Below are positions 18,401 to 54,007 of a stretch of 54,007 nucleotides of DNA, piece after piece. The stretch covers positions 1 through 54,007 of the IMG/VR virus record IMGVR_UViG_3300046011_010503; one strand, 5' to 3'. The notes below the pieces were generated by a model, which saw nothing but the letters and a program-made list of their open reading frames with translations, made no database searches and was not told where the DNA came from. A program made the position numbers and the translations under genes. Within the stretch, counting starts at the first letter, position 1. Each line of letters begins with the position of its first letter. This DNA is from a virus. Its lineage: Duplodnaviria; Caudoviricetes.

Positions 18401-19494
18401 GACTCAAGAACTGTGGCAGGTATTGAATAATAGGTCCCGTACTTATTGAGTATCTCTGGTTCGTCAAAACCTTTTTTTATTAGCGGATCTGCAAAGTTTC
18501 CTTTTTCTATCATCTGCCCGCCGACTACCGGGAGCGCTGCGCTTGCAACAAGTTGGGGCAACATGTCTGCGGCAAGTATGGAAACTGCCTTGGCTGTCTT
18601 AAGCGTATTTGGCAGGGTCCAGGCTTCTTTCTTCATAGCCCACTCTTGCGCCCAACCAGTAGAAGGGGCGGAGTCTGTCGCCTGGTTTTTTACTACATCA
18701 GACATAACTCCTTTGGCATATTTGACATAGTCATCGCCGATACCCTCGTCATAAATAGGACCGCCTTTAGCGTCAGCCTTTGCTCTTTTGTCGAGGATAT
18801 TAATGGCATTAGCCTCTTCCATGAACTGGACATTTTTCTTATAGCTTTTCTTAATGGCGTCAACGAATCCGGCACCCCACGACGGCTCTTCCAATTCTGT
18901 TGAAACAGCTTCTTTTGGCATATACTGCTTAACATTAATCCCCATACTTGCCAGGGTAATTGGCTCCACATTAGGTTGCGACTCAGCCGCTGACTTCTGC
19001 CCTAACGAATCAGAGAGCTTTCCAACAACCCGGTCCACATAATCTGCAGTATAGGAAATGCCATCATAAAACCGAGGTGTGCGCGGCACCTCAAATACTC
19101 CGGTTTTCTGCATGTTATTCCAGACCTCTTGCGCTCCACTGGGTCCGGCGTGGTAATATATGGCAGCAAAGCGCGGGTCTCCACCGTATTTTCTTAAACC
19201 GTCCTCCAGGTACTTTTGAGCGTACCGGCGCGACACCTCTGGTTTGCGCTCGTAGTCGGGATCAAACGGCTCCCCGAGGCTCGCTGCAATCTCTGGGGCC
19301 GTGTCCGGCATGATTTGATACTGTCCGCGCGCGCCTTTTGGAGACCGGGAAGAGTTGGGGTTATTTCCACTCTCAACACCCCCGATAACGTCCACCAACT
19401 GATCGGCGTAGGCTATGGGAGCAATCTGAGAGGCATTCTGCTTTGGATAGTATACAGAGGGATCATAACCAAGGAGCTCTTTGAGAGTCGGCAT
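6469..19494 (-). CDS. Giant polyvalent virion/ejection protein (4341 aa): SLT lytic transglycosylase, GGDEF, N6-adenine methyltransferase, two ADP-ribosyltransferase-like domains, HExxH zincin, EEIQSD-motif domain, helical C-terminus
   Basis: VESG...GARGQYQIMP...YHAGP (SLT); DLDKFKNVNDSHGHQVGD and GGEEF; FFPTP/VLEPSAGNG/NPPF; two WFGDWEND...SKVVD.NGKPLVVY(H/R)G modules; HEVLH; located after tail/ejection genes. Confidence 0.9.
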   Translation of the reverse strand: MPTLKELLGYDPSVYYPKQNASQIAPIAYADQLVDVIGGVESGNNPNSSRSPKGARGQYQIMPDTAPEIAASLGEPFDPDYERKPEVSRRYAQKYLEDGLRKYGGDPRFAAIYYHAGPSGAQEVWNNMQKTGVFEVPRTPRFYDGISYTADYVDRVVGKLSDSLGQKSAAESQPNVEPITLASMGINVKQYMPKEAVSTELEEPSWGAGFVDAIKKSYKKNVQFMEEANAINILDKRAKADAKGGPIYDEGIGDDYVKYAKGVMSDVVKNQATDSAPSTGWAQEWAMKKEAWTLPNTLKTAKAVSILAADMLPQLVASAALPVVGGQMIEKGNFADPLIKKGFDEPEILNKYGTYYSIPATVLESVSELVTVGAASASKLVKKIPTVEKITALATKNVANSVAKKVLVKAIGAVAGTAEAGLVEGTTEVTQQNLQDYLSVLAVRDAIKSNPSKAEKYQPIVDDLVKNGGQNLQTFVLAALPSMALHIGIGGVTRLTKKALPKTKPSDGSQVQQNTSPYTTMGETAPKVEFTPDGAELAKSPSQQSQTQRPSGQKLLSDFDIESPEAFYSLPQEDRGKIQSQLSDSEADRIIQAYEPSPEESGIITTPQPEGVANEKGQETQALLSPIGEPVVDNAPAPTDEFAPTAVQEGAAEAVPAKKVDRAIIVPDKFKALTPEEKDAEYAKLHKASETDQLTGLMNRTGIDRAAYEMGYSMREGDKNPPPVVLLDLDKFKNVNDSHGHQVGDDVLQSAGLVLSNRLNDIAFVGRHGGEEFLIIPKQGVSKDDILQRVESARSDLSSIPFNDGKLTGVSFSAGFGEGVKAADDQLYKAKDAGRAQTFEGDKKYEPVQNAVPGPGAAQGPASSTAAVGTEQKDGGSASAEPTATEPSAAVPAEATTAGTAEQTKSKTPIKRGKGSGSALPLEQLVKSGSTDGRVHAEDATHFKSIVERRDSAAGAVVSLSSRIDELSGQLEASKIISKYRNAFSQKDVNLATGGNSSDYRGKGAQSADVTMHDFFVENKDFTAKTGITLEDFNTPSDFVAFVKEFPTTPEVRSKIKAAKNEYEAAHKAYAEMSRQAGEYEKRYSKSTSEEPTLFQRKTGYDPNQADMFSGTGPSLAGLPLFNGENVAPPQQKKGPLVTGDLFEGTKAADTRTQEEKKIEAQQREKDAVRPAVSLQGLPMFDANEREAMITKQEDLFKNVPTVKEKEVPKKEAIVEPLAVQAQKSEKTEEKAFDPVIVPGKMTYSAFTETKKKLYNGKLSIDDFKMTFSKLVDSENNIKAELSTNKKDALQKIYSNYTSYMRPGENKSELISSIYHSMLSTYGLSRGIVHDFNGTYADSVKKIVDNTTQKDLDAFAEEVDKNTKEYIARRQATIKAIKNPETLAEFKTFLQYKKVEDLTPEQRRTYEDLTSTNIKEKRKEEKIDDSTVEKVDIGDTGMQLIETKHTQKGHDLFVVRLNNRVDREIYNDLNVKAKKLGGYYSSYKGNGATPGFQFTEKAQAEKFMALKSGDVSNADAVVEKETVKTVKRADKLRTNAEKIIAKADEGLNQDRQTNTARRAAMASSADAALNKQKRIGKTMLNIAAAIDAGEVKFLDGVSAKTHIEQLDGLVNEAKRNEVNLKYPTYSEREKHEGEPATEETIDKLNASKAYYPNLWAENLSDLFKKVESRPGSKAAIKKLYFRLVGKDSGIQVIKDQSEIDALEKLTSLLSENDAKYNQIVDALERHRRLKTMGFENPIMLSSALREYVKYRGKAPVVDKIKELERSLIGKNVGVDFFPTPKPVAEQMVRDAGITEGMKVLEPSAGNGNIADAIRAAGVKPDVVEISSSLRELLQAKGYNVVEHNFMDYNEGGYDAIVMNPPFGGGADIEHVRHAYDLLKPGGKIVAIMGEGAFFRSDRKASDFRDWLEEVNGSEEKLPQNTFQDKTLMNTTGVNARIVNITKPESSALFQRKEQSQIYTTEFKAWFGDWENDSENASKVVDESGKPLVVYHGTDKNFTEFRTGLNKVKGEQGMFFSTNPEIASKYSGYDELFPSKNIGSVKPVYLNIEKLKTVDLKGGKYGRAEIINKAKEEGFDGILLKNHYDAGGVQDQYVVFSPNQIKSATGNTGVFNPSNPDIRFQRGEQSPNDTQFHRSGRPTLSTEQPGKTADPFQFGAISALAKAAANQGVSIGPENIQVVDAAPQSAGFIGLAQRVFDVPIKTIKLTREAQKLSDMFNGFRHNGVVYLNDSSTDPSVYVVMHEVLHDIFAKQPYLKTRLMDFFQKQFTDSGNAAALREAEWYRSLMKSKELTQGMKDIGVEEVIANYLADSSTDPKFWDAVHAYSQPLARRLLQKIAEVIDRILRAAKVYRRTSEGWFKDAQAVRGEMVKMMAAAVRGASREEFYGAVREALFMRDGSGQQQDQTRTAEFKRWFGDWENDPENASKVVDENGKPLVVYRGEHGKVRTKVRTTHLVPTTDEKSLLEEIGDVPSSLIQTALGSVSFVNNPETAATYAESPNNRELSKTAEQPRVIPAYLSIRNPVIQNLDDPFVEMGDIVKAIGIDKAIKIAIKHSYQIELTNNWDENFSEKYSSVEELLRKSPKRIKELYLDAYFVFDDIDAVRYFKDAGYDGAIHMGNGESMDDIEYKVFSTTQIKSATGNTGAFDPSNPDIRYQRNNNTLNDQNARTLAAEYGLSFVGMQEGVPGYPGTALFNDKNGNTFAARTESELESRVSEMTDGVLFQRPIADTFYSPTLKAVQALKQDRGTGDQFFAMISKAPGVKESEWKWMGLDDFLKGKQSVTKKEIEDFVRQNQVTVQEKYNKQGDKKIPFEGLSDEEVAEHYENYMDQEIPLGATRQELIDEMVEANENDMGGERAEVETKYQQYTLPGGENYREVLLTLPLKVVRPATEKSFKVVENGYKSSHWEEPNVIAHTRLDDRTGPNGEKVLFVEEIQSDWARDVRDKGVRQNPVNELPSDYTFNEVVVKEAPNGWSDTRIDVKDGSGNIVWKEYNGTIESAKKNALIDLNHNMKLKGVPNQPFLKNWQELTLKRILRMAAEEGYNRVAWINGEQTADRYNLAKVAESINHSKNADGTYNFHVTDKIGRDILDRMNVPESELAGIFGKDVANKIVNRDGEFDKRRDYSFFTNRGSAVGEVFKDGRWYIKWQDGSESGTYLSKEDAAREADHVTRNYVLSPEHNRPKILKGTDLKIGGEWAHNLYDVQIPKFFEKYGKKWGTKVEPVSLGRDAMPMPTQDKYRGGYFITQDGPHFDTIEEAREWSIKNSPTQQSITITDEMRDSVMHEGQPLFARRKQELLPDGSVPKKKYVSTKLRRPKAEQIAAQEQIEDLTQYIKDRFKVPDIEGVTEERRPLFEKHWDNIATRAELEKELMQYEMYSDAVNFKYHHEGLIKKELKRKEIQQKIYDYARKINLVGEPRNQVDTLMLRTTGTSRNFFKALNIMDTVMEKRLQAKALEEVRLKFDATRKRIAAARAGRQPAPWTAEHTEAVEKYLDQFMFMSAKEEKAYEEAMASLEQNKENFDPEDALGYDSKELAALTEMVKKNLLGMSSSDLLNVMAELTQIERTGKTAKMLADAQAAAKLASDGFFAGVEIRRVTKNSEKSLAERSLGRKERGLARNAKEFFMDTMDPQRVIEWITGNFTEAGRREASVFKQNTWNKLRDASVKSVDSMIKATKHIREIHKPLVDAMKSLPLKYAIKAEFTDGVNDRKIPLPGRVETHELTLNEMMFVYANSKNEGNILHLFGSGWTREGMLQVENTIPEVAKDVVDKMHRYYDVVQYPKMNGVFRRLFGIDMPRIENYFPIRNLLSAKVEDSMLSEMLARFSNKSSVQKGMTKARQGSAAPFREMDYMGVVFANLRQSEHFVANAEAVRDVRKFLNYDDVAQALANRDKDFDAKAWSNDFLKRMAYGKVEAIRSDAVAKTADALRYYYSCYALGWNPKTWVKQWSSLFVGGKYVENKARLAQSALKMMAQRGNMIEDIKSKSLFMKNRNSRFEREIQEMFDKHESTMFLNTTAEVMNKIRQVSMWGISTSDMISSSILWDAKYTEEINKGIPQEQAVRNADEAIEKSFAGGGLAYLTRGQTSQGLTRYLTMFTSDLAKAMNTQYETMRTARQNGLSKTAIAVMMTSLIPAALIFTVDTFDPEKFKDDPEGFLGYILSQIYGAFPLFNQIGDGLYKNLVADPIRKLRGAPTKPLFQGSSSIKIPWMDIADELYSAAGAVKKAIGTKEGDDVGEAVGKAVKASVGAAGMLTGLLPRQPINTAQAAYGLITGTEDDWRRLLYSAGSLKDMSISGGVARGILGNKEISAEQYGEMSDAQREIVDQKIQKIIEKKERLDELKYSRE
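11535..12295 (-). repeat. ADP-ribosyltransferase-like module, copy 2
   Basis: EFKRWFGDWENDPENASKVVDENGKPLVVYRGE...EYKVF...QIKSATGNTGAFDPSNPDIRYQ. Confidence 0.7.
13135..13625 (-). repeat. ADP-ribosyltransferase-like module, copy 1 (conserved flanks shared with copy 2)
   Basis: EFKAWFGDWENDSENASKVVDESGKPLVVYHGT...FFS...QIKSATGNTGVFNPSNPDIRFQ. Confidence 0.7.
13670..14180 (-). other. N6-adenine DNA methyltransferase domain of the giant protein
   Basis: DFFPTP, VLEPSAGNG (motif I), VMNPPF (motif IV, NPPF at 13909-13920). Confidence 0.85.
16980..17430 (-). other. GGDEF diguanylate cyclase domain of the giant protein
   Basis: DQLTGLMNR, DLDKFKNVND.HGHQVGD, RHGGEEF (GGEEF at 17176-17190), SFSAG, ADDQLYKAK..GR. 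Confidence 0.92.
19010..19390 (-). other. SLT (lytic transglycosylase) domain of the giant protein; boundaries approximate
   Basis: Catalytic ES motif (GVESGN), GQYQIMPDTA, YHAGP. Confidence 0.85.
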
Positions 19495-42065: not shown

Positions 42066-42689
42066 TTAGAATTTTTTTCCGCCGTGTTTGTGGCCTCTGT
42101 TTTTATTGAACTCGTTTTTTGCAATGATAGCTTCAGCCACTCGCAAGTGCTCCTTTTCTGCGTAATCCATAATTCTGATTACCACATCTGCAAGCTCTTC
42201 CTCAATTCCTAAAAAATCAGGGATATGGTCAGAGTGCAAAAGAGTGCCATTGCGTGCCCACTCCAAAGCCTCGCTCAATTCAGAATGACACAACGCAATA
42301 AAGGCTGGAAAGTTGATTGTGCTTTCGTGCCATCCGTTGTCTACAGATGTTAGGTAGCACTGGAATTGCTTTTTGTTCCAAACCTCCAGAAAGGCGTCTG
42401 CTGATTTTGAAAGGTTAATGCCGGCAGCTTCTAATATTTCCTTTTTTCTCTTCTCAAGCGCCGACTTAACCCATTCATTCCAGGCAAGCACCAGGTCGGC
42501 TGGTTTTGTGCCAGAAAACTCTTTGCCACATTGTGAGCATTTTATTATATACGCTACGCTTCCCACTTGAGGGTAAACACGAGCAGAGCACTTTAGGGAT
42601 TCTCCGCTGCAATAGCATTTTTTTGCAGTGTTTTGAATTTCGCTAATAATGTCAAGAACATCGCGATAACCTTCTGTGTGTTTGTTCAC
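42066..42689 (-). CDS. Zn-ribbon plus MazG-like nucleotide pyrophosphohydrolase
   Basis: CYC...CSQC...AWN; IALCHSELSEALE...EEELADVVIRIMD...KNEFNKNRGHKHG. Confidence 0.8.
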   Translation of the reverse strand: MNKHTEGYRDVLDIISEIQNTAKKCYCSGESLKCSARVYPQVGSVAYIIKCSQCGKEFSGTKPADLVLAWNEWVKSALEKRKKEILEAAGINLSKSADAFLEVWNKKQFQCYLTSVDNGWHESTINFPAFIALCHSELSEALEWARNGTLLHSDHIPDFLGIEEELADVVIRIMDYAEKEHLRVAEAIIAKNEFNKNRGHKHGGKKF

Positions 42690-43714
42690 ACATACCCCCT
42701 CGTAGCATTAAACGGATTCTGGTCAAACAAATATCCGGGATCAAAAAACTCTCTTCCTAAATCAAGAATCGACGCAATAGAAATATCAAGAGGTGTTAAC
42801 CCGGCACCATCAAACCCCGAAGCGTAAATTTTATTCCAGCCGCCGCAATGTATTCTGAGAGCGCAACTCAAACACGGACTGGTTGTAATAGCAACCCCGT
42901 CACCCAGCTCGCACGCAGAACGCCATAGTTTAGCTAGTTGTTCCCCGCAATGCCCGTTGTCCCATTCGCCCGGGTCGTAGAGCACATACCGCGCATTGGT
43001 CACGTACGGCCAGTATTTGGGCTTTAAATGGCACATCGGGAAATAGCGCAGCGTCACAAACCGCCCGGCGTCCAGAATCATGTCAATGCACTGCTCCATG
43101 AGTGGTGCCAAAACCCTCGGATCCACCGCAACCTGGCGCAGCTTCTCCGGATCCGACCACTCGTAGTGCGGCAGAAAATTGAGCAACACGACGTGATACG
43201 CACCATGGTCAATAATGGTTTGGACAATTTCAGGTAGCTGTTTGTAGTTGTCCTGCTGCAGCGTAGTGTTGGATCGCCAGGGGAGTTTTGTCTCTTTGAG
43301 ATACTCCATGATCGCCATTTGTTTTCCGGCTGCAGCGCTGGATCCGGATATTTTATTTATCACCGATCCTATTCCATGAATTGACAAGTGCAGATGGTTA
43401 ATGCCAGCATCAAATAAGTCTTGATAGTACTCGGGGTCTGCGGTGCCGTTGGTAATTATTGAGCTAGTCATACCCTCATTTTTTACCGCCTCGACCCACG
43501 GCACCAGGTGAGGCCAGAGTGTCGGCTCTCCCCAGCCAACAATAACTGAATGGTCACACCCACGGTCCTTACCCTCTCTGACTTGCTGCATTATGGTTTC
43601 CAGGGGAATGTCTATTGCCTGGTTGAACCCTGGGGAGTGCCGGTAAAAGCACTGTTGACATTTCCAGTTGCAGCGCTTTGTAACTTCAACGCCTATCCGC
43701 CTGCATTGATTCAT
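42686..43714 (-). CDS. Radical SAM protein with C-terminal Cys cluster
   Basis: CNWKCQQC, GWGEPTL, ITNG, CLSC...HCGG. Confidence 0.9.
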   Translation of the reverse strand: MNQCRRIGVEVTKRCNWKCQQCFYRHSPGFNQAIDIPLETIMQQVREGKDRGCDHSVIVGWGEPTLWPHLVPWVEAVKNEGMTSSIITNGTADPEYYQDLFDAGINHLHLSIHGIGSVINKISGSSAAAGKQMAIMEYLKETKLPWRSNTTLQQDNYKQLPEIVQTIIDHGAYHVVLLNFLPHYEWSDPEKLRQVAVDPRVLAPLMEQCIDMILDAGRFVTLRYFPMCHLKPKYWPYVTNARYVLYDPGEWDNGHCGEQLAKLWRSACELGDGVAITTSPCLSCALRIHCGGWNKIYASGFDGAGLTPLDISIASILDLGREFFDPGYLFDQNPFNATRGYV

Positions 43715-45618: not shown

Positions 45619-47744
45619 CCACCTTCTGCTTTGGTTTGCGTTACTGACTCAGGTGCGTTTAATTTATTCAAAACATTTGTTTTTCTTATTGAGTATGACT
45701 CAAGCTTCAAATCAGTTTTTTCCATATGCCCTCGCTCTTTTAAATACCCAACCGCATTGCAAAGTGCCCTGCAAAGCCCAAACCCTTTTGCTGCAGGTCG
45801 CCCAGCCTCAATAATCCACGACGACATTTGTCGGGCAGTCTCCCCGCAGCGAGAATTAATGATGACCAGCTTATTGAAGATCATTTGAGAAATCAACGTT
45901 ATTGAGCCTGGCTCGTCATATCCAATATTGTCTACAATATTTATCTTTTTTTTCAGATATCCATTTGACATACTGTCTTTGGTGTAGTTGCCACTAGAGC
46001 TGTTTGTTTTGGCAGCAAACATCAGCGGGCTGCCAAGCCAAGTGTGCTTTTGCATTGTTTTTAAATGACCCTTAGACACCGATCTCACGTTTGCCTCAAC
46101 AACAGGGACCACAATATCGGGCATAGACGTCGGGTTTACCACTTCACAATAAACCCACAATTGTCCGGCGTTTGCGTTCCACATTGCCAGTATTATTGAT
46201 GTTGTGAAATCATCCTCAACCCATTGACTGCATATCAGCTTTGAATGAGAGGAGAGGTTTGCGAAATTAACCGCAAAACTCATCGTTTCCCCGTTATAAA
46301 TAGACCACACATGAGCAATATTTGGAGCGTGCGTTTCGTAGGCTACAACCATGGCGTCCGCAATATCGTCGTGAGCGGCACCAGGGACAAGACCAACCTC
46401 TTCTAAAAAATCAGTGTTCCACGACGCTCTTTTTAGGTAAACGTTCCCAGCCTCAAAAGCAGCCTGCAAAACTTCCCACTTCGATCTTTTATCCCCTGGC
46501 AACTGCAATTTTTTGACGACTCGCAGTCCGTGCAGGGCGTTTGACAGTGTGGTGTAGCAGTCTTTGTATCCTCCAAAAGCTTCAACTCCGATTGTTATCG
46601 CACCATCAGCAATGGCGGTAGCCTTGATTGTTTTGTCTCTTTGCGGTGCATCCCACCGGCCACGGACCATGTCATCGATATAAACGGTTGGTATTTTTTC
46701 CCCGTTAGGCAGCTGCTGCCACCGGACACCAAGTTTGATTCCGACCGTATAATCCGGATCCTCTTTGTCTACGGTCTTTTTCGTGCTAGCCAAATCCCAT
46801 CCTCGGCAATACACAATATCCCTAGGCATCTGAGCCGGCTGGATATATTCAATCCGGTCCGTTTTGAAAAATGCCCCTTCACGTCCGATCGGCTCACACT
46901 GCAGCAATCCGGCAACCGAGTACGCCGGACGAGCAAACTGCCCCCGGTACCACTCGAGAGAATACCGCTCTGGAAACAAATACCCGCTAGGATAAACGTC
47001 AGATCTTGCTGGGAATTTTAGCTCTTCGAATTTTGGGAAATCTGGATTTTCTTTCATATTTCGGGCAATTCGCCCGAACGGATCATCGATATGCCATGGG
47101 GTTGCTAGAATAATCATTATGTGGACCGGAGCCAGACGGGAGCGAATATCATCCTCAATGCTCTCCCACACCTTATCACGGATCCGAGAGCTCTCAGCCT
47201 CTTCACGACCCTTGAAAAAATCGTCTACAATGGCCAGGGAGCCACCTTTACCGGTAATCGATCCACGGATACCAACCCAGCGAGCCTGCCCCTGGCGCCC
47301 CTCGACGCCCCAATTTTTAACACTAGCATCAGTGCTTGATAGTTTTACTCCCGGGAACACCGCGCGATACCGCTCATCGAGCATTATGTTGCGGGCAAAG
47401 CGAGAGAATCCCTCAACCAGCGAGCTCGTGTATGCAGCAACAATTATCTCCTCGTCGGGAAACAGCCCGAGAAACCTCGGGGGAAAATAGCGGGAAATAA
47501 TATCACTCTTACCGTGGCGAAATGGAACCTTGACAATTAGGTAGGTGCTCTTCCCATTGCGAAAATCTTCTATCGCCTTGTCCAGTCTATCGCATATTTT
47601 TTGCGTATGGTATCCGACAACCATCGGGCGAGAGCGAACCTGCCAGAGATATTGCATAAAGTAGAGCTGTGTCCGGCGGGCGAGCTCACCTTTAATGGCT
47701 TGCGTAGTAGGCATTGTGATATTTGGGTTGATTTTCTGCATCAC
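45606..47744 (-). CDS. terL: Terminase large subunit with extra C-terminal domain
   Basis: PFRHGKS (Walker A), IVDD (Walker B), ATPWH.DD, GWDLA, DYTVG, HDDIADA. Confidence 0.92.
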   Translation of the reverse strand: MMQKINPNITMPTTQAIKGELARRTQLYFMQYLWQVRSRPMVVGYHTQKICDRLDKAIEDFRNGKSTYLIVKVPFRHGKSDIISRYFPPRFLGLFPDEEIIVAAYTSSLVEGFSRFARNIMLDERYRAVFPGVKLSSTDASVKNWGVEGRQGQARWVGIRGSITGKGGSLAIVDDFFKGREEAESSRIRDKVWESIEDDIRSRLAPVHIMIILATPWHIDDPFGRIARNMKENPDFPKFEELKFPARSDVYPSGYLFPERYSLEWYRGQFARPAYSVAGLLQCEPIGREGAFFKTDRIEYIQPAQMPRDIVYCRGWDLASTKKTVDKEDPDYTVGIKLGVRWQQLPNGEKIPTVYIDDMVRGRWDAPQRDKTIKATAIADGAITIGVEAFGGYKDCYTTLSNALHGLRVVKKLQLPGDKRSKWEVLQAAFEAGNVYLKRASWNTDFLEEVGLVPGAAHDDIADAMVVAYETHAPNIAHVWSIYNGETMSFAVNFANLSSHSKLICSQWVEDDFTTSIILAMWNANAGQLWVYCEVVNPTSMPDIVVPVVEANVRSVSKGHLKTMQKHTWLGSPLMFAAKTNSSSGNYTKDSMSNGYLKKKINIVDNIGYDEPGSITLISQMIFNKLVIINSRCGETARQMSSWIIEAGRPAAKGFGLCRALCNAVGYLKERGHMEKTDLKLESYSIRKTNVLNKLNAPESVTQTKAEGGWMV

Positions 47745-48436
47745 CCAGATACCTTTTCTGCCAAAGCAAGAAATACTTTCAGCTCTTCCGAAGACAGCTT
47801 TGACAAATCCATATTATTGAGTCCGACCCCTGCAGCTGCAACAGGGGCAGCATCTTCTTTAAACATACCCAAGTGTTTTCCCATCAGCTCAAGCGGTCCT
47901 TTTTTGTCGTGCAGCTCAAGCTTAATTGTTTGCCCGCATATTTGGCCAAGTGGGTTTATATCCTGTTTTACTTCAACTTTTTTAATTGCCCGGGTTGCAG
48001 TTCCCAGCATCTGTGTCGGCACAACTTTTACAGCATACAAGTCAGCCGAGTCAGTTGTCTCATCTCCATTTTCGCTGGGTGCGGCGGGCCCCCAACTCAA
48101 ATAGTTGCCCATATCTGAAAATCCGCAGGCTGCCAGGTGCGCTAGAACTTTGTCCGTCGTTGGAGTCATCTCTTCTATATTGCTCTTTCTCCAACTATCT
48201 ATTCTGTGAATAAGCTCAGTATTTACGCTTTGAGTATGCAGCATAGATTGAGCTTTATCATAAGCTGACCTGAAAATCTCGTTTGGCCACATTCTACGAG
48301 CAACCTCCGAGAGGTTTCCTTTTGCCTGGATGTAAAACTCAACGAATTGTTTTTTTTCAGCTATAGCAAGAAGTGCCTTTGGTCCACACACAAAGGGCTT
48401 GCTTTTTGTTTTTTTTGATGCGGGCTTTTTAATCAT
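47741..48436 (-). CDS. terS: Terminase small subunit
   Basis: FVEFY...NLSEVARR HTH, VLAHLAACGFSD, IKLELHDKKGPLELMGKHLGMF; ATGA overlap with terL; start at 48436 preferred (48517 possible). Confidence 0.85.
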   Translation of the reverse strand: MIKKPASKKTKSKPFVCGPKALLAIAEKKQFVEFYIQAKGNLSEVARRMWPNEIFRSAYDKAQSMLHTQSVNTELIHRIDSWRKSNIEEMTPTTDKVLAHLAACGFSDMGNYLSWGPAAPSENGDETTDSADLYAVKVVPTQMLGTATRAIKKVEVKQDINPLGQICGQTIKLELHDKKGPLELMGKHLGMFKEDAAPVAAAGVGLNNMDLSKLSSEELKVFLALAEKVSG

Positions 48437-48573
48437 CTGCGCTTCCTGCGCTTTAGTTAAAACGGATACTCGAAGGTGGCAAGGGGTTGATAAAAAAGTA
48501 CCACCTCCGAGGTCCATGAGTTCTTAATATACTAAATAATTTTATAAAAGCTATAATTATTTTTATTTTTTCA

Positions 48574-48602
48574 TTGCAAAACCATATCTTTATCGCTATA
48601 TT
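48574..48602 (+). promoter_or_regulatory. Sigma70-type promoter of the divergent plus-strand operon
   Basis: TTGCAA-17 nt-TATATT, followed by AGGAGG and ATG 48633. Confidence 0.7.
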
Positions 48603-48632
48603 AACATTAATCAATCACACTCAGGAGGGCAC

Positions 48633-48773
48633 ATGCTTTACATGCTCATAACAAACACAGCGACTGACAAGTTCTTTTTTATTCCATGGAATGGATTGTC
48701 ATCAATTTCAGACAAGATTGCTGAGAGGCAACCAAAGTACATAACCTTTGAAGAAGTGGTGGTATCCTTTTGA
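48633..48773 (+). CDS. 46-aa hypothetical protein
   Basis: Strong AGGAGG RBS; MLYMLITNTATDKFF... Confidence 0.55.
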   Translation: MLYMLITNTATDKFFFIPWNGLSSISDKIAERQPKYITFEEVVVSF

Positions 48774-48880
48774 TTTCGAAAAACAATAACGCTGACTGCC
48801 TCATTGTCGGGCTTTTCTTTCTCTTGCTTGCGGGAGCCGTTGCTGTAGGATACGCAATTGGGACCATATTGCCCTTATGA
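48770..48880 (+). CDS. 36-aa single-TM peptide
   Basis: TTGA overlap; LIVGLFFLLLAGAVAVGYAIGTILPL. Confidence 0.4.
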   Translation: MISKNNNADCLIVGLFFLLLAGAVAVGYAIGTILPL

Positions 48881-48991
48881 AATCTAATAAGGGAATTACC
48901 AGCTGTTGGTATTGCGGGACTCGTGTTGGGTTACAGCAGGGGTTTAGACATAAGTATAAAGTTTGCGCATATCACGCAAGAGAGGAGGAGA

Positions 48992-49162
48992 ATGAAAATA
49001 TTGAGCTGCAAAGAATTTGCGGAACGATTGGGAGTCAGTGCAGTGAGGGCTCGCCAGCTGTGTGCAGCGGGTAGAGTTAAAGGTGCAGAAAAAAAAGCGC
49101 ATGACTGGATTATTCCAGCCGGCGCTAAAGACCCAAGACGAAAGGTAAAGTGTGCAAAATAA
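48992..49162 (+). CDS. Excisionase/HTH_17-like DNA-binding protein
   Basis: GGAGGAG RBS; LSCKEFAERLGVSAVRARQLCAAGRVKGAEK...WIIP. Confidence 0.8.
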   Translation: MKILSCKEFAERLGVSAVRARQLCAAGRVKGAEKKAHDWIIPAGAKDPRRKVKCAK

Positions 49163-49355
49163 AAACAATCTATCCGAATGCGCTTCATGTTTAGATAAAA
49201 CTAACTGTGAACTAAATTCTGGTTACTGCAAAAAACCAAAATACTTCAATGAAACTTTACTGATTGAAGACGAGCACACCGGCATACAAACAACAACGCA
49301 GTACCTGGTAAAATTCAATGGCGGACCAATGGGCTTAAGGAGGGGAGGTGATTAG
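49152..49355 (+). CDS. Hypothetical protein
   Basis: Overlaps HTH gene stop; CxxC...C...C. Confidence 0.45.
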   Translation: MQNKNNLSECASCLDKTNCELNSGYCKKPKYFNETLLIEDEHTGIQTTTQYLVKFNGGPMGLRRGGD

Positions 49356-49791
49356 CCCAGGCGTTACATACTTTTTTTCCAGAAACGTCACTCATCATAG
49401 AAGCTGAAACCCCCATTAGGTGACACTTTTTGTATTTATTTACCTTACATCCAAAAAAACAATTTCCGCAATTTTCATGTCCATCAGCTGTTCGATAATT
49501 CTTTTCCTGCTTAAACCGAGTGTATGGGCTTTTTGCCGGATCCACTATTTTAGTGTCTCCGCCAAACAAGTCTGGACCAGTAACTTCATCCTTTTTTTTA
49601 TAACTCTTTTTTATTTCACGACGCATCTGCAATGATCCGTCTTGATTGTCCCATACCGATCCACACGGAGAATCGTCAAAACCCGAGATAACAAACCAGT
49701 TAGGCACAACTACTTTTCCTGACTGAGTTACCAACTCTATTGAGTGTTGATTTTTTTTAACTATGTGATAAACGGTGTTTTTAAGAACCAT
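49315..49791 (-). CDS. Hypothetical protein with C-terminal 4-Cys cluster
   Basis: YR...CGNC...KCHL...VCNAW. Confidence 0.6.
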   Translation of the reverse strand: MVLKNTVYHIVKKNQHSIELVTQSGKVVVPNWFVISGFDDSPCGSVWDNQDGSLQMRREIKKSYKKKDEVTGPDLFGGDTKIVDPAKSPYTRFKQEKNYRTADGHENCGNCFFGCKVNKYKKCHLMGVSASMMSDVSGKKVCNAWANHLPSLSPLVRH

Positions 49792-49981
49792 GATTAACGC
49801 TGCGCTCGCTCAAATCAGTAAAATCATATTTTTCACGATGTAAAACACTTAACTTTGGTCGCATCTGCAACCCTTTTTTATTGTAATCAACCAGCTCCAT
49901 ATGAGAGTCAGGTTTTGGCGCTTTGCTAACTGGCATGAACCTTCCAGCAACAACCTCTTCCTCGTATTTTAGAGTCACCAT
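49781..49981 (-). CDS. Hypothetical protein
   Basis: Overlapping start/stop coupling with neighbours. Confidence 0.5.
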   Translation of the reverse strand: MVTLKYEEEVVAGRFMPVSKAPKPDSHMELVDYNKKGLQMRPKLSVLHREKYDFTDLSERSVNHGS

Positions 49982-50400
49982 TTAACCGAATCCCCATCCT
50001 TACAAAACCCAGGCACCGGCCACTTCATAAATTTAACCTTGCCACCCTTTACCCATGCCAAGTACGTTTCAGTGCCTTGTATTTTTGAGTGACACGTCAA
50101 TGTTGCAGCTTGCCCAATGCCTCCCATGGTGGGTTTTCGAAGGCAGGACCACGGGAGATTTCCGGAATCATGTTTTTTAACTTCAACGAGAACGGATCCA
50201 CCTTTCGAGTTGATTGCTCGGATATCTCCGGATACTGTTTTTTTTGCGTAGTATTTTACACCTTCAGTTGTAAGCTTGGCTCTCAAGGCGGTATTTACTT
50301 GCTCAATAAACAAATATCCAGCAACTCTCATTTGAGCTGCAACAATCTCCTCTCCAACCGATCCACTTTTTTGACGAAGTTTTTGAAAATTAATAGCCAC
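49975..50400 (-). CDS. PD-(D/E)xK nuclease, Holliday-junction-resolvase-like
   Basis: G..GEE, SGDIRA...VLVEVKK, Q...L. Confidence 0.7.
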   Translation of the reverse strand: MAINFQKLRQKSGSVGEEIVAAQMRVAGYLFIEQVNTALRAKLTTEGVKYYAKKTVSGDIRAINSKGGSVLVEVKKHDSGNLPWSCLRKPTMGGIGQAATLTCHSKIQGTETYLAWVKGGKVKFMKWPVPGFCKDGDSVKW

Positions 50401-50674
50401 AATCTGACCACACCTTATCCATTCGAATGTTTTTGTGTGATAGCATCACATCATAAGTATCGCCTTTTTTCCAAAACATTTCCTTTACAATCCACCCTCG
50501 CTGCAATAACAAGCGCTCTTCTCGCCGCATTAATCTAGCCTTTGCGTATGATTTTATTTTAGTACCGGGTTCTGGTCGAAACCCTTTTACTAATTTAATG
50601 AACAACCGTTTTTTCATATTACCTCTTACTACTTTCATATTTACGCTCATTATCGATACCCCTGACATCCGCAA
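50390..50674 (-). CDS. Hypothetical basic protein
   Basis: In operon; start uncertain. Confidence 0.45.
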   Translation of the reverse strand: MRMSGVSIMSVNMKVVRGNMKKRLFIKLVKGFRPEPGTKIKSYAKARLMRREERLLLQRGWIVKEMFWKKGDTYDVMLSHKNIRMDKVWSDCGY

Positions 50675-50943
50675 TAAAAATCGTCATGGGACTGCAGCGG
50701 CATTGCCCGGAACATGTGTAATATTTTTGTGGACTTTTTTGCGTTATTACAGCTTGTGCATTTTGCCATTCTAGGAGTCGCTCTTATGTTTACAATTCTA
50801 GTGTGCTTTGGCGGGTTTAAACATGACGGACACACGCTTCTTCTAAACCCATTAACGCTTTTTCGCTCACACTCATTCATTAATCCAAACCAACCACAAG
50901 AGCATTTTACAACAAGGGTTTGCGTTTTCCAGTCTATGCTCAT
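50650..50943 (-). CDS. Zn-finger protein
   Basis: CSCGW, CPSC, CTSC, DDFYCGCQGY; ATGA overlap. Confidence 0.6.
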   Translation of the reverse strand: MSIDWKTQTLVVKCSCGWFGLMNECERKSVNGFRRSVCPSCLNPPKHTRIVNIRATPRMAKCTSCNNAKKSTKILHMFRAMPLQSHDDFYCGCQGYR

Positions 50944-51506
50944 AAAACACTACTTTCTGGAAAAATTATTTTTCTTAACGCATCACCGTAGACTCTGAGC
51001 GCTCCTAATGCAGTATTGAATTTATCAATATCCCTTATCTCACACACAGACGTTTTACGTCCCCACCGGCGCTGACCCTGGGAAAGCTTGCCGCCACCAG
51101 TTTTAACGTCCCCCTGGTATGTTAGTGAGAATCCATTGCCTATTGGATAGTAGACAATGAGATCTGGTTTGTTCTTGAACGCCTCGGCAATCTCCTGTTT
51201 GATTTTTAACCCCTGGGCAGTCCCCATTGCCCGGTCAATTGCGATAGATAATTTGTCATCTGGGTTGTAAAACTGAATTAACCGGTAGATTAAATCTGGG
51301 ATATGCAGATAGTCCATACCGGGCTCAGACTGAATCAGCTCGACGCATTTGGAGAGCAAGTCGTTGTGGTCTGGTATTGCGACTGCGTTTCCCTCACAAT
51401 CTGTTTCAGCTGCTTCACGCCTTATTTTAGTAGGAGACTTTTTTAACCGAATTGGTTTTGGGAATGCGACAAATGATGATGGTTTGGGCTGTTCGTATTT
51501 TTTCAT
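50940..51506 (-). CDS. VRR-NUC-like nuclease
   Basis: HIPD, PDLIV, DVKTGGGKLSQGQRRW (D in place of the usual E of ExK). Confidence 0.6.
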   Translation of the reverse strand: MKKYEQPKPSSFVAFPKPIRLKKSPTKIRREAAETDCEGNAVAIPDHNDLLSKCVELIQSEPGMDYLHIPDLIYRLIQFYNPDDKLSIAIDRAMGTAQGLKIKQEIAEAFKNKPDLIVYYPIGNGFSLTYQGDVKTGGGKLSQGQRRWGRKTSVCEIRDIDKFNTALGALRVYGDALRKIIFPESSVL

Positions 51507-51706
51507 TTTGGCTTTTTTCTTAACTCAAGTTCGAATTTAGCAATCTTACTGATAGTTACAGTTTGTTTTACTCTTCCAGCTCCGTCGCACACGCCGCAGC
51601 GATCGTCCCACACGTCCCACTCTCTATGGTGATAATTGGTCAGCTCTCTATTTTCAACCTTACCAGTACCTTTACAATGTTCACAAAGTATTATTTTGAC
51701 TTCCAT
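51503..51706 (-). CDS. DnaJ-type CxxCxGxG zinc-finger protein
   Basis: CEHCKGTG...CGVCDGAG; start re-set to MEVKII. Confidence 0.7.
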   Translation of the reverse strand: MEVKIILCEHCKGTGKVENRELTNYHHREWDVWDDRCGVCDGAGRVKQTVTISKIAKFELELRKKPK

Positions 51707-51936
51707 TTTTTTATTTCTTTCAGAATAATGTTTGTGCAATAAGCCATCATGTGCAATATTTCTCTCTGATCGTAGCAGTGTGGGGCCCTGTGTGCATTTC
51801 CAGAAAAGGTGCATGCACAAATTTTACAAATCCAATGCCCTTTATCTTTTGGATATCCAAGCCCATGTTCATAAAATTCAAGATCGTGCGTTTCAAATTT
51901 GCACGCTTCGCATTCTTCTGGTTTTTCGTTATACAT
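51691..51936 (-). CDS. Small Zn-binding hypothetical protein
   Basis: CEAC...CKIC. Confidence 0.55.
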   Translation of the reverse strand: MYNEKPEECEACKFETHDLEFYEHGLGYPKDKGHWICKICACTFSGNAHRAPHCYDQREILHMMAYCTNIILKEIKKWKSK

Positions 51937-51979
51937 TTTATTATTCCATCAACGACCGATAAATGTTTGAAGTGGAGCG

Positions 51980-52072
51980 CTACATATTGTAAAGGTAAAT
52001 AAACCCTAACACTATAGGAGCTATTAATAGAGCAATAACCATTATTTGAGGCCAACCGTGTAAATCTTCCAT
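51980..52072 (-). CDS. 30-aa single-TM peptide
   Basis: GGAG RBS; MEDLHGWPQIMVIALLIAPIVLGFIYLYNM. Confidence 0.4.
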   Translation of the reverse strand: MEDLHGWPQIMVIALLIAPIVLGFIYLYNM

Positions 52073-52146
52073 AAAATTTAGCTCCATTTTAAACCTTATT
52101 TGTTGGTTGATGTATGCCGAACTTCCATTTGAAGCGGTACCCCGTT

Positions 52147-52464
52147 TTAAGCTGCGCCAGTTGTACGAAGTGCGCTGGCTTCTGCTGTTTCCTGCGGCGC
52201 GTCTTCGTATTTATGTATTTCTTTTTCCCCGTTTGCCCATCCGTCTTCAAAATCAACAACAGGCGAAGAAACCATTTTTGCAAACGGCAAAACATCGCTC
52301 CAGTTCATGTTGTTTTGCGCCCAATCAATAAAGTCAAAATCATCGTAATTATCAAGGTATTCATCATCAATTCCGTTTTCTTTCATATTATCTTCAACAA
52401 TTTTTAATGGAATTTCCCATTTTGAATTGTCTGGCATTTCTACGATCATTTTTCTTTTAAACAT
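52147..52464 (-). CDS. Cassette A gene: acidic hypothetical protein
   Basis: GAGG RBS; MPDNSKWEIP...DWAQNNMNWSDV; flanked by inverted repeats. Confidence 0.75.
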   Translation of the reverse strand: MFKRKMIVEMPDNSKWEIPLKIVEDNMKENGIDDEYLDNYDDFDFIDWAQNNMNWSDVLPFAKMVSSPVVDFEDGWANGEKEIHKYEDAPQETAEASALRTTGAA

Positions 52465-52531
52465 TTAATTCCTCGCTTTTGAATTTGTATTCGCGCCGCC
52501 TCAAAGTTTCCAAAGCCAGCGCATTTTGTAC

Positions 52532-52578
52532 AACGTGGGCCGTACGCACCATCGTTTTAATGTGGTGCTACGGCAGTT
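52532..52578. repeat. attC-like site 2
   Basis: AAC gtgg GCCGTA c GCACCA-11 nt-TGGTGC TACGGC a GTT. Confidence 0.8.
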
Positions 52579-52754
52579 GGTTGATGTTCCGGTTTTGCTT
52601 CCACAGCATTCCGTGGCGCATGGTCGGAACAAATTGTGACTTTAAAACTCCCACCTGCAATTTTTCTTTTAATACAATCGAGAGACGCCGCACACGTTGG
52701 GCACAAATCTTCACCGCCTAAAAAAGCCTTGAGATCCTCCATGTTTTTTCGCAT
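52557..52754 (-). CDS. Cassette B gene: small Cys-containing protein
   Basis: GAGG RBS; CPTC...C...C; flanked by inverted repeats. Confidence 0.6.
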   Translation of the reverse strand: MRKNMEDLKAFLGGEDLCPTCAASLDCIKRKIAGGSFKVTICSDHAPRNAVEAKPEHQPTAVAPH

Positions 52755-52801
52755 TTAGCGCCACCTCAAAGTAAATGGTTTTCAAAACCGGAATTGCAAC
52801 C

Positions 52802-52881
52802 AACGGTTTGCGCAACGCATGCTGATTGCGCCTATAATATTTTTACTACAAATCAAGCGCAATTTGCATGCTTGCGCTGTT
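52802..52881. repeat. attC-like site 3
   Basis: AAC ggttt GCGCAA c GCATGC tg ATTGCGC-loop-GCGCAAT tt GCATGC TTGCGC t GTT. Confidence 0.8.
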
Positions 52882-53595
52882 AGGTGCTGTATGGCAAATT
52901 TCCATAGTGTTCTGCGCGGGGCTGTATTGCGCCCAGGACGGGCGCTCTTTGAATTGCTTTATGAACAGCCACTTGCGAGACCTATTAACCCATACGCCAC
53001 CCATGCCTTTTGTCTTTCCGCGCTGCTTGACTACGCCATCGACAACGTAGTCTTTCTTTGCCGCAGTCATTCCGAGTGCCGTGAATCCACTGGCCTTGTA
53101 TATCGTACCGCAATGACCGTCGCTATCGTCAGCGTATGTCACGATTCCCTTTACGTATGCCATTTTCTGCAACAACCGAATAGTAACTCCGATCATTCTG
53201 CTTTCTGAATTTCTTGGGCACTCGTCTTTCAACACCAACCTCTTGATTTCCCACCACAGAGCTTGAGTGTTTCGATTCCAGTACCCTTTCAAGTCGGTCG
53301 CGTTTGGCGTGCCGTAAGAAATAGCGCCGACAAGGTGGCCATCGAAAAAAGCTCCAAACGACAGAGTGGCGAGAAATCCTTGGTCGCCAAGATAGTGCCA
53401 CTTACGATACGCAAGCGCGGCACAGGAAGAATTAACAACCTTAAAAACAAGGTGGAGCGGAGAGGTCGGAGTCAAACCGCCATCTGTCTCTTGGAATAGA
53501 GACTGTGCTATCGCTGCACCATCTCCGCATGTATTTGTTTTCGGCGCACGACGCTCCGTGTCTTGCCCCGCGCCTATAATTTCATAATTTGCCAT
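52846..53595 (-). CDS. Cassette C gene: Mom-like GNAT-fold DNA modification protein
   Basis: GG.TPTSPL, WHYLG, EIKRL...PRNSES, VTYAD...H.GTIYKASGF; start re-set to 53595, inside the cassette boundary. Confidence 0.8.
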   Translation of the reverse strand: MANYEIIGAGQDTERRAPKTNTCGDGAAIAQSLFQETDGGLTPTSPLHLVFKVVNSSCAALAYRKWHYLGDQGFLATLSFGAFFDGHLVGAISYGTPNATDLKGYWNRNTQALWWEIKRLVLKDECPRNSESRMIGVTIRLLQKMAYVKGIVTYADDSDGHCGTIYKASGFTALGMTAAKKDYVVDGVVKQRGKTKGMGGVWVNRSRKWLFIKQFKERPSWAQYSPAQNTMEICHTAPNSASMQIALDL

Positions 53596-53604
53596 ATTGC
53601 ACCT

Positions 53605-53652
53605 AACGTCCGGCACACGCCGGATGCCTACTGGTTTACGGCTGTGCCTGTT
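53605..53652. repeat. attC-like site 4
   Basis: AAC gtcc GGCACA c GCCG-16 nt-CGGC TGTGCC t GTT. Confidence 0.8.
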
Positions 53653-53870
53653 GTTTGCAGTTGGCAGCGACTCCGCAGCTTCCTTTCCGCAGCCCAACCA
53701 CGGCAACATTCCGCACTACAGAATGAGTTTGAGTGTGTGTGCGGCTTGCCACAACGAAGGCACTTCCGCTCTGATTTTATATAATCCATAGACCGGTCTC
53801 TTGGCCCGCTGCCCCAAGGAAAGCTACCCAACATTGACGCTAAGAAAGCCGCCCCTATTAAACCACGCAT
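53628..53870 (-). CDS. Cassette D gene: small protein with CxxC...FCSxxC zinc finger
   Basis: CLRCGK...FCSAEC; AAGGA RBS. Confidence 0.6.
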   Translation of the reverse strand: MRGLIGAAFLASMLGSFPWGSGPRDRSMDYIKSERKCLRCGKPHTHSNSFCSAECCRGWAAERKLRSRCQLQTTGTAVNQ

Positions 53871-54007
53871 CAGAACTTCCTTTCTTGGCTGCGGAACTAT
53901 AATGGCGCTCTCGCTGCCAATTGAAAACAACGTTTGATAAACTGGTGCTGTAAAATGAGGCGTCCAGCCGGAGAGCCGAAGCTCTGGTCCGTGTAAACTC
54001 CCTCGTT

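Follow-up and report, generated by a model that had tools for sequence, protein, structure and literature searches.

Integrons are the textbook gene-capture device of bacteria, and recent work has found their cassettes to be rich in anti-phage defences. Here we describe a candidate phage-side counterpart in the IMG/VR record IMGVR_UViG_3300046011_010503, a virus of the Caudoviricetes. The record was analysed over its whole length of 54,007 nucleotides (nt), and this stretch is called the window below. Positions 52120-53931 hold four one-gene cassettes with AAC...GTT-bounded hairpins between them, all on the minus strand, which is the gene-sense strand. This region is probably the distal part of an array that resembles an integron, in which a recombinase of a Xer-like clade serves four mobile cassettes. 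The four open reading frames (ORFs) between the sites are single and mutually unrelated, as an original prediction made from the sequence had stated, and the ORF, PHROG and Pfam results bear this out. The same prediction held that this phage exchanges accessory genes as cassettes through attC-like AAC/GTT hairpin sites. The complementarity between the two ends of each cassette, and homology between contigs that ends at GTT, argue in favour of such exchange.

In the proposed mechanism, a cassette unit would run from the TT of a GTT box through a single gene and an AAC box into a G+C-rich hairpin, and would end at the G of the next GTT. Cassettes would enter, leave and be reshuffled by site-specific recombination with a crossover between G and TT (G|TT), presumably by way of a circular intermediate. 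Once the ends of a cassette are joined, these ends and the hairpin are predicted to form one long imperfect hairpin. From the outside, it would consist of an outer stem of ~10 bp, a fixed 2-nt mismatch and a 9-bp stem that ends in AAC/GTT; further in, an asymmetric internal loop (1 nt facing 4-5 nt) would lead into a 6-bp stem with a single bulged base beyond it, and then into an inner stem closed by a variable loop. The end-joined form, folded in this way, is the most likely substrate, and conservation of structure without conservation of sequence suggests that it would be recombined as folded single-stranded DNA. The most likely enzyme is a dedicated, Xer-like tyrosine recombinase, ~280 amino acids (aa) long and without the IntI insertion. 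In the predicted layout of a complete locus, the stop codon of the recombinase is followed by a short hairpin and a first GTT box, which would serve as an attI-like entry site, and the array then continues on the same strand.

Hairpins of this kind stand out within the window. An AAC-hairpin-GTT scan of its entire minus strand gave 253 candidates, and the best three by energy density were 52802-52881, 52532-52578 and 53605-53652, in that order. These are the three complete hairpins of the original prediction, whose coordinates were right. They are also the only strong matches in the 54 kb to the covariance model R1, which was built on 19 aligned sites from the window and other loci; besides these three, R1 found one weak match and nothing else. 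Site B (53599..53658, minus strand) has its AAC...GTT at 53605-53652, with boxes GCAAACAAC and GTTAGGTGC, and scored 54.3 bits (E 9e-13). Site C (52796..52887, minus strand) has its AAC...GTT at 52802-52881, with boxes GCACCTAAC and GTTGGTTGC, and scored 75 bits (E 2e-18). It overlaps the final 14 codons of a Mom-like ORF, and its homologues in L004, L017, L002, G003 and G004 are hairpins with compensatory changes. Site D (52526..52584, minus strand) has its AAC...GTT at 52532-52578, with boxes TCAACCAAC and GTTGTACAA, and scored 38.1 bits (E 2.6e-8).

Single hairpins were also folded with RNA parameters, each against 200 shuffles. None of the shuffles folded as well as 52790-52895 (-40.8 kcal/mol, z -4.6), and only two folded as well as 52520-52590 around site D (z -2.7). 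Equally good folds were found in 23 shuffles of 53595-53665 (z -1.2), 16 of 53915-54007 (z -1.5) and 68 of 52110-52175 (z -0.3), so by folding energy alone just two of the hairpins are exceptional.

The two ends of the array are less regular. Junction A (53925..53931, minus strand) is a GTT box, GTTGTTT, with its G at 53931; it opens cassette 1, and no convincing or R1-detectable hairpin lies upstream of it. Site E (52114..52168, minus strand) is a decayed last site that retains the AAC box and the 5' arm and has lost the 3' arm. Its 5' half resembles a site of L008 (79.5% over 44 nt). R1 missed it, its fold is no better than those of shuffled sequences, and it is the probable distal end of the array. 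Partial sites had been proposed at ~52120-52162 and from 53929; the first stands for its 5' half only, and the second is a GTT junction alone, with no hairpin. Just past the array, 51945-52110 (minus strand) gives a weak R1 match (16.6 bits, E 0.021) and contains a 32-nt imperfect inverted repeat (I1, 75% complementary) around a 35-aa hydrophobic ORF. This segment may be a degenerate site or may be due to chance.

Judged by sequence comparison, the sites belong to a family. A covariance-model search had been suggested as a check on the prediction, and R1 found 61 further sites outside the window in 13 loci on unrelated phage contigs, co-directional within each array. AAC and GTT are invariant in 19/19 aligned sites. 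The prediction had also stated that the hairpins share structure and little sequence, and in the 19-site alignment the basal 12-bp stem is 90.5% paired, and for 10 of the 12 base pairs both partners vary; the pairing is partly by construction, since the sites were picked by hairpin scan. The largest array has 23 sites in ~7 kb of a 253-kb phage (G001; L008:4723-11800), and another has 11 sites on a 46-kb contig. Cassettes of the G001 array are ~290 nt long and carry Cys-rich ORFs of 74-115 aa that extend across the AAC box and into the hairpin. This array is 46% G+C, compared with 32-36% in its flanks, and R1 found no site in 28.7 kb of flanking sequence.

Architecture was counted over the 69 of 72 sites with a single outer hairpin. 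Of these 69, 60 have a 5' spacer of 1 nt and 65 a 3' spacer of 4-5 nt. In 49/69 the stem is first interrupted, after 5-6 pairs, by a bulge on the 3' arm, and the bulged base is G in 37. Hairpins range from 47 to 175 nt in length, and the AAC box is translated in at least two reading frames. Set against RYYYAAC/GTTRRRY, the box GTTAGGT fits strictly; GTTGTAC and GTTGTTT do not. The asymmetry of G:T versus A:C was tried as a guide to the folding strand and was rejected because the counts were too few and were dominated by the fixed mismatch.

In each cassette of the window, the first bases complement the last box of that same cassette. Cassette 1 starts with GTTGTTT, the exact reverse complement of AAACAAC at 53656-53650, and cassette 2 with GTTAGGT, the exact reverse complement of ACCTAAC at its far end. 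The start of cassette 3, GTTGGTTG (GTTGGTT), is the reverse complement of its terminal CAACCAAC (AACCAAC), and cassette 4 starts with GTTGTAC, the exact reverse complement of GTACAAC at 52166-52160. This count of 4/4 cassettes includes sites A and E, which were taken straight from the sequence; the two boxes of any one site match in part only. Across the family, adjacent site pairs were compared by the 4 variable nt that follow one GTT and the 4 nt ahead of the next AAC: in 36 of 52 pairs the two are fully reverse-complementary, and three of four positions match in 8 more. A full match occurs in 268 of 4160 other pairings (6.4%), and in 4 of 65 cases within a single site. Own-cassette complementarity is what integron arrays produce, and by that analogy it is the signature of a G|TT crossover here.

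The pairing of cassette ends continues past the 9-nt boxes. GTT and six variable bases are followed by AA(T) in 48 of 67 sites, opposite (A)CA, and this forms a fixed 2-nt mismatch between the cassette ends. For the ~10 nt that follow, 31 of 57 own-cassette pairs agree at no fewer than 9 of 10 positions, compared with 48 of 4365 other pairs. The outer 10-mers mostly differ among cassettes (58 distinct of 67), so it is the pairing between the ends that is conserved and not their sequence. In total, the two ends of each cassette pair over ~22 nt. In the window, the terminal inverted repeats, all on the minus strand, are 53908-53931 with 53650-53673 (cassette 1), 53584-53607 with 52879-52902 (cassette 2), 52781-52804 with 52576-52599 (cassette 3), and 52511-52534 with 52160-52183 (cassette 4). 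When the ends of each window cassette were joined by script, all four folded to one long imperfect hairpin, with energies under DNA parameters of -26.9, -37.1, -29.0 and -20.9 kcal/mol. Equal lengths in array context gave -17.9, -26.9, -14.8 and -10.8 kcal/mol, so the end-joined forms are better by 9-14 kcal/mol. Inverted repeats around the Mom gene were also considered as the borders of an invertible segment, and this idea was dropped because all cassettes have such repeats and the arrays are co-directional.

Repeats of this kind recall miniature inverted-repeat transposable elements, non-autonomous transposons that a transposase working on double-stranded ends would place in tandem; terminal inverted repeats of ~22 nt on all cassettes, and the lack of an encoded recombinase in most arrays, would suit them. 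This origin is highly improbable. Apart from GTT and AAT, the 58 distinct outer 10-mers leave no common end for a protein to bind, target-site duplications were not seen, the units are co-directional without exception and each abuts one hairpin, and no transposase was found beside the arrays in ORF lists and the PF00589 search, in which transposase models were not run.

Cargo genes of the window cassettes are small and diverse. Cassette 1 (53607..53930, minus strand) begins with the TT that follows junction A, ends with the G of site B and carries an ORF at 53628-53870 for a small Cys-rich protein of 80 aa from its ATG, with a weak HNH-like match in PHROG (E 4.7e-4) and none in Pfam. Cassette 2 (52804..53606, minus strand) carries an ORF of 249 aa (52846-53595) for a Mom-like DNA-modification protein, which matches PHROG 1384 and Pfam PF25680 Mom, the latter at E 1.1e-29 and 104 bits, where the cut-off is 27. 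The cargo of cassette 3 (52534..52803, minus strand) is a 65-aa ORF (52557-52754) with no family match in PHROG or Pfam. Cassette 4 (52122..52533, minus strand) carries a 105-aa ORF (52147-52464) of PHROG 17928, a family of unknown function, and its ends form a long inverted repeat. A motif resembling ATTATAG recurs ~30-40 nt past many cassette starts (~53895-53901 and 53570-53576 in the window, and also in L002, L012, L015 and L032); it could be a cassette-borne promoter or binding site.

Ends of these cassettes occur around other genes elsewhere. The first ~80 nt and last ~40 nt of the Mom cassette (53530-53609 and 52879-52923) enclose unrelated genes on other contigs at 85-100% DNA identity; the cargo inside such shared frames includes N6/N4 methyltransferases, a class I methyltransferase and a C5-like methyltransferase, and the frames were found in L002, L003, L007, L008, L011, L012, L015 and L017. 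The shared ~80-nt start contains a ribosome-binding site, an ATG and 22 codons. Substitutions in this shared 5' end number 5, 15 and 11 at codon positions 1, 2 and 3 among seven sequences, and this pattern, together with the translation of the AAC box in two or more frames, indicates that the constraint is on the DNA and not on the peptide. Cassette 1 has ends (~65 nt at 5', 30 nt at 3') in common with a G004 cassette that carries another gene; its start follows a methyltransferase cassette and a different hairpin in G004, and precedes the Mom cassette here. The 21-base start of cassette 2 occurs exactly in 8 IMG/VR stretches on contigs of 4 to 264 kb. In one scan of prokaryote genomes, the same 21 bases occurred only on a 168-kb contig with phage-like genes (L017), which is contig 2 of a metagenome-assembled genome binned in the archaeal Thermoplasmatales (G006). 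All R1 matches of that assembly are on L017, with arrays at both contig ends, and L017 is probably a circular phage genome that was mis-binned.

Breakpoints at GTT can be seen directly when two of these contigs are compared. L004 and L017 are alike except at 3 positions in a flank and a 78-nt hairpin, and they diverge immediately after GTT, which indicates that the hairpin travels with the upstream gene and that the breakpoint is at GTT. Comparison of related phages had been proposed for this purpose; the breakpoints at GTT were indeed found, in unrelated contigs, and no close relative of this phage was available for comparison. The large terminase of the window has no match in G001-G005, and on this sequence the array-bearing phages are unrelated.

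A recombinase of a single clade adjoins some arrays of this type. PF00589 was detected in one of five other array-bearing records, G004, which is complete at 53.6 kb and has terminal repeats. Its tyrosine recombinase of 279 aa is encoded on the strand of the array, 157 nt upstream of the first site. By family and by structure, the best matches of this enzyme are XerA/XerC-like, all below curated NCBIfam cut-offs, and it scores 141.9 bits against the integron-integrase model TIGR02249, for which the cut-off is 265. It lacks ~40 aa exactly at the extra domain of VchIntIA: in the alignment to VchIntIA 2a3v, the chain jumps from 182 to 245 and the query merely from 182 to 203. The I2 helix is described as an additional domain specific to IntI in two papers (PMC7790495, PMC4792948). 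A tyrosine recombinase with the I2 insertion was what the prediction had advised looking for, and the clade linked to the arrays does not have it.

Homologues of the G004 enzyme form a small clade with 43-66% identity. Outside the clade, the nearest proteins are Xer-like proteins of Patescibacteria (~35%) and integron integrases (~29%), and an alignment of the clade shows no variation at the catalytic R-K-H-R-H-Y positions. As an IMG/VR query, the G004 recombinase alone retrieved only itself, and the clade loci came from an alignment-based search of viral and metagenome contigs. Loci of the clade (46-100% identity) were assessable if they had at least 400 nt downstream; L033, with 221 nt, was not counted. 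R1 sites lie downstream on the same strand in 4/4 assessable loci (G004, L023, L034 and L032), and in 0/11 loci with distant recombinases. This genetic linkage to the clade fits the prediction that the recombinase would be encoded outside the window; a Xer-type tyrosine recombinase is found in relatives only. All four positive loci have the recombinase gene in the same orientation as the array, and no promoter was identified. A hairpin of 5-7 bp follows the stop codon of this gene, and the first GTT box, 26-30 nt past the stop, agrees with the AAC box that opens the first site at 6, 8, 9 and 8 of 9 positions. By analogy with integrons, the hairpin and this first GTT box are an attI-like entry point.

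Several observations weigh against a mobile array in the window. No tyrosine recombinase (PF00589) was detected in the window, and control genomes were all positive. The contig is ~76% complete, ends upstream of the array and encodes no such enzyme, so the recombinase would lie beyond the contig end or act in trans. No recombinase was detected in the complete jumbo-phage records with arrays, G001 and G002, so many arrays have no resident enzyme and would depend on supply in trans. No close relative showing gain or loss of a cassette on one backbone was found among GenBank phages or in IMG/VR: GenBank phages had no blastn match to 49000-54007, and a search of IMG/VR with the small terminase yielded no relative of this phage. 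Excision products or deletion variants were not seen, and contigs of four public runs showed no joints when compared with 51800-54007, in assembled contigs, which drop rare variants. Short public contigs matched only the shared cassette ends (~52870-52944 and ~53530-53612) with unlike sequence on either side; this agrees with other cassettes having those ends and is not evidence of excision. A full 4-of-4 match is missing from 16 of the 52 adjacent site pairs, some of which may hide undetected intervening sites. Unrelated cargo within identical ends of ~80 nt and ~40 nt is not predicted by simple integron logic. Two of the five sites named in the original prediction are degenerate. Finally, the statistics on pairing and architecture lean toward the model, as the sites were chosen by hairpin scan or by an architecture-based model.

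Integrons are the closest known system. Like them, the array has one gene per cassette in co-directional order, hairpin sites with invariant AAC/GTT in which structure is kept rather than sequence, an apparent crossover at G|TT, and cassettes whose first bases complement their own inverse core. Also in common are a recombinase of the Xer/IntI branch by the first cassette and an entry site unlike the cassette sites. Canonical integron sites are described in terms of R', R'' and L boxes and extrahelical bases. In the four class 1 attC sites compared (L021, a P1 phage with class 1 integrons), the sense strand carries its bulges on the 5' arm and has spacers of ~5/6 nt, whereas the sites here have the bulge on the opposite (3') arm and spacers of 1/4-5 nt. 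Complementarity of cassette ends extends over ~22 nt with a fixed 2-nt mismatch here and over ~7 nt in integrons, and ORFs here often read through the AAC box into the hairpin, unlike those of integrons. The linked recombinase lacks the IntI-specific insertion (I2 helix region), and its gene is directly upstream and co-directional, whereas intI is divergent. R1 gave 0 matches at E<=10 in the class 1 integron array L021, and 0 matches at E<=1 in P12002L and TJE1, two phages published as carriers of clusters of attC sites lacking integron-integrases (CALINs). This type of array has so far been found on phage contigs only. By its enzyme, its site geometry and these R1 results, it is not a canonical integron.

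A related possibility is that the array is an ordinary CALIN, with canonical attC sites that came from a bacterial integron and cassettes that are moved by a host IntI. Invariant AAC/GTT cores, one gene per unit and own-cassette complementarity would all be expected of it, and phage CALINs have precedents. Qi et al. (2023) reported 17 CALINs in phages, including virulent phages, with five methyltransferase cassettes; these were found with canonical attC models, IntI1 was active on 5 of 6 tested phage attC sites, and no dedicated phage recombinase is described in the sections of that paper considered here (PMC9892861). In Polaribacter phage P12002L (L039, 29160-38935), Mom-like and methyltransferase genes lie between AAC...GTT hairpins, and the cassettes obey own-cassette complementarity with the same logic; the spacer asymmetry is the reverse of that in the family described here. 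The three strong sites of the window lie within 1.1 kb of each other and no integrase is present, on a contig that ends 76 nt beyond the array; the sites are not canonical attC. An ordinary CALIN is improbable: R1 is blind to the class 1 array and to both published CALIN phages, bulge arm and spacers differ from those of class 1 attC sites, the linked recombinase is without ~40 aa of the IntI extra domain and scores below the integrase cut-off, and among prokaryote genomes the one scan placed the 21-base cassette start only on the phage-looking 168-kb contig.

The phage CALINs of Qi et al. and P12002L show that phage cassette arrays as such are already known; the original prediction had put the array forward as a candidate for an undescribed system. 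In full-text searches of the literature, which did not include the supplementary tables of PMC9892861, we did not find this site class, the long covarying ends or the dedicated Xer-like recombinase. We lean, by a little, toward a phage gene-capture platform that would parallel the integron and work independently of IntI, with a Xer-like enzyme, an attI-like hairpin and palindromic sites of 100-200 nt. In such a platform, the crossover would split the palindrome unevenly and leave ~22 nt at the 5' end of the cassette. Arrays without an integrase would be served in trans, and a common pool of DNA-modification and small Cys-rich genes would circulate among unrelated phages, jumbo phages included.

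Regulation offers a different reading of the hairpins. They could act at the RNA level (as terminators, in processing or stability, or in control of the com-mom type), and the modules could be swapped by homologous recombination. Translational control of com-mom is known from phage Mu, and here a hairpin lies just upstream of the start codon of the Mom-like gene. The hairpins are between genes on the sense strand, and the conserved cassette ends of ~80 and ~40 nt could serve homologous recombination. However, the hairpins are not followed by T-runs, and the 6 terminator-like sites in 47000-54007, fewer than the 7.6 expected from shuffles, all lie elsewhere. Rfam gave nothing at E<=1 on 48000-54007. 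Terminators would leave the ~20-nt covariation of the variable cassette ends unexplained, and the RNA reading does not explain why homology between contigs ends exactly at GTT, or why arrays start 26-30 nt past the stop codon of one recombinase clade. We regard it as very unlikely. In T4-type phages, stem-loop regulatory cassettes shuffle early genes, and homologous recombination has been proposed as the route. These cassettes share with the array repeated intergenic stem-loops around small accessory genes and modular shuffling, and they differ in having a conserved early promoter and stem-loop, whereas here the sequences vary and the unit ends covary. Sigma-70-like promoters were not in excess here (10 found, 11.8 expected).

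Known Xer systems also bear on the integron-like reading. In CTX-type integration, XerCD acts on folded single-stranded phage DNA at dif, and in plasmid dif modules, exchangeable gene modules are bounded by Xer sites. Common to these systems and the array are a Xer-family tyrosine recombinase without the IntI insertion, and a folded hairpin (CTX) or exchangeable modules (dif). They differ from the array in that they use a 28-bp dif-like core and host XerCD, and are not known to have arrays of AAC/GTT hairpin sites.

The 54,007-base window is a complete IMG/VR record, classed as linear, with a CheckV completeness estimate of 76%. Its large ORFs are all on the minus strand, and its genes include a portal and the large and small terminase subunits. 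The array is at the high-coordinate end of the contig, which is upstream, in terms of transcription, of small ORFs and the terminase genes; nothing supports the placement in a phage early region that was proposed initially. The record stops 76 nt past junction A (53931), at the upstream side of the array, and a public contig from a possible source run extends at least 337 nt past the window end (54007). Eight public runs contain the stretch or part of it, and their records all say lake water or metagenome; three of these runs are possible sources of the record. Two other genes of the window deserve mention. A 4341-aa ORF (6469-19494, minus strand) has SLT transglycosylase, GGDEF, methyltransferase and ART-PolyVal domains, and is a polyvalent protein of the kind injected by phages and conjugative elements. 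A radical SAM protein (PF04055, E 1e-22) is encoded at 42686-43714 (minus strand), between the portal and terminase genes.

If the integron-like reading is correct, it has consequences for several questions. It would explain the sharply bounded small accessory genes that are common to unrelated phages, including jumbo phages. A Xer-like enzyme that lacks the IntI insertion and is tied to arrays of folded hairpins bears on the evolution of IntI from Xer; if this enzyme truly recombines folded single strands, then the I2 insertion is not the sole route to that chemistry. The way in which cassettes arise is an unsolved problem, to which long covarying ends and shared cassette frames offer new approaches, and the system could become a compact tool for site-specific integration. 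The Mom-like and methyltransferase cargo points to a common pool of anti-restriction and accessory genes that would be traded among unrelated phages. A phage-side counterpart of the integron that trades DNA-modification genes would mirror the role of integrons in the arms race between bacteria and phages.

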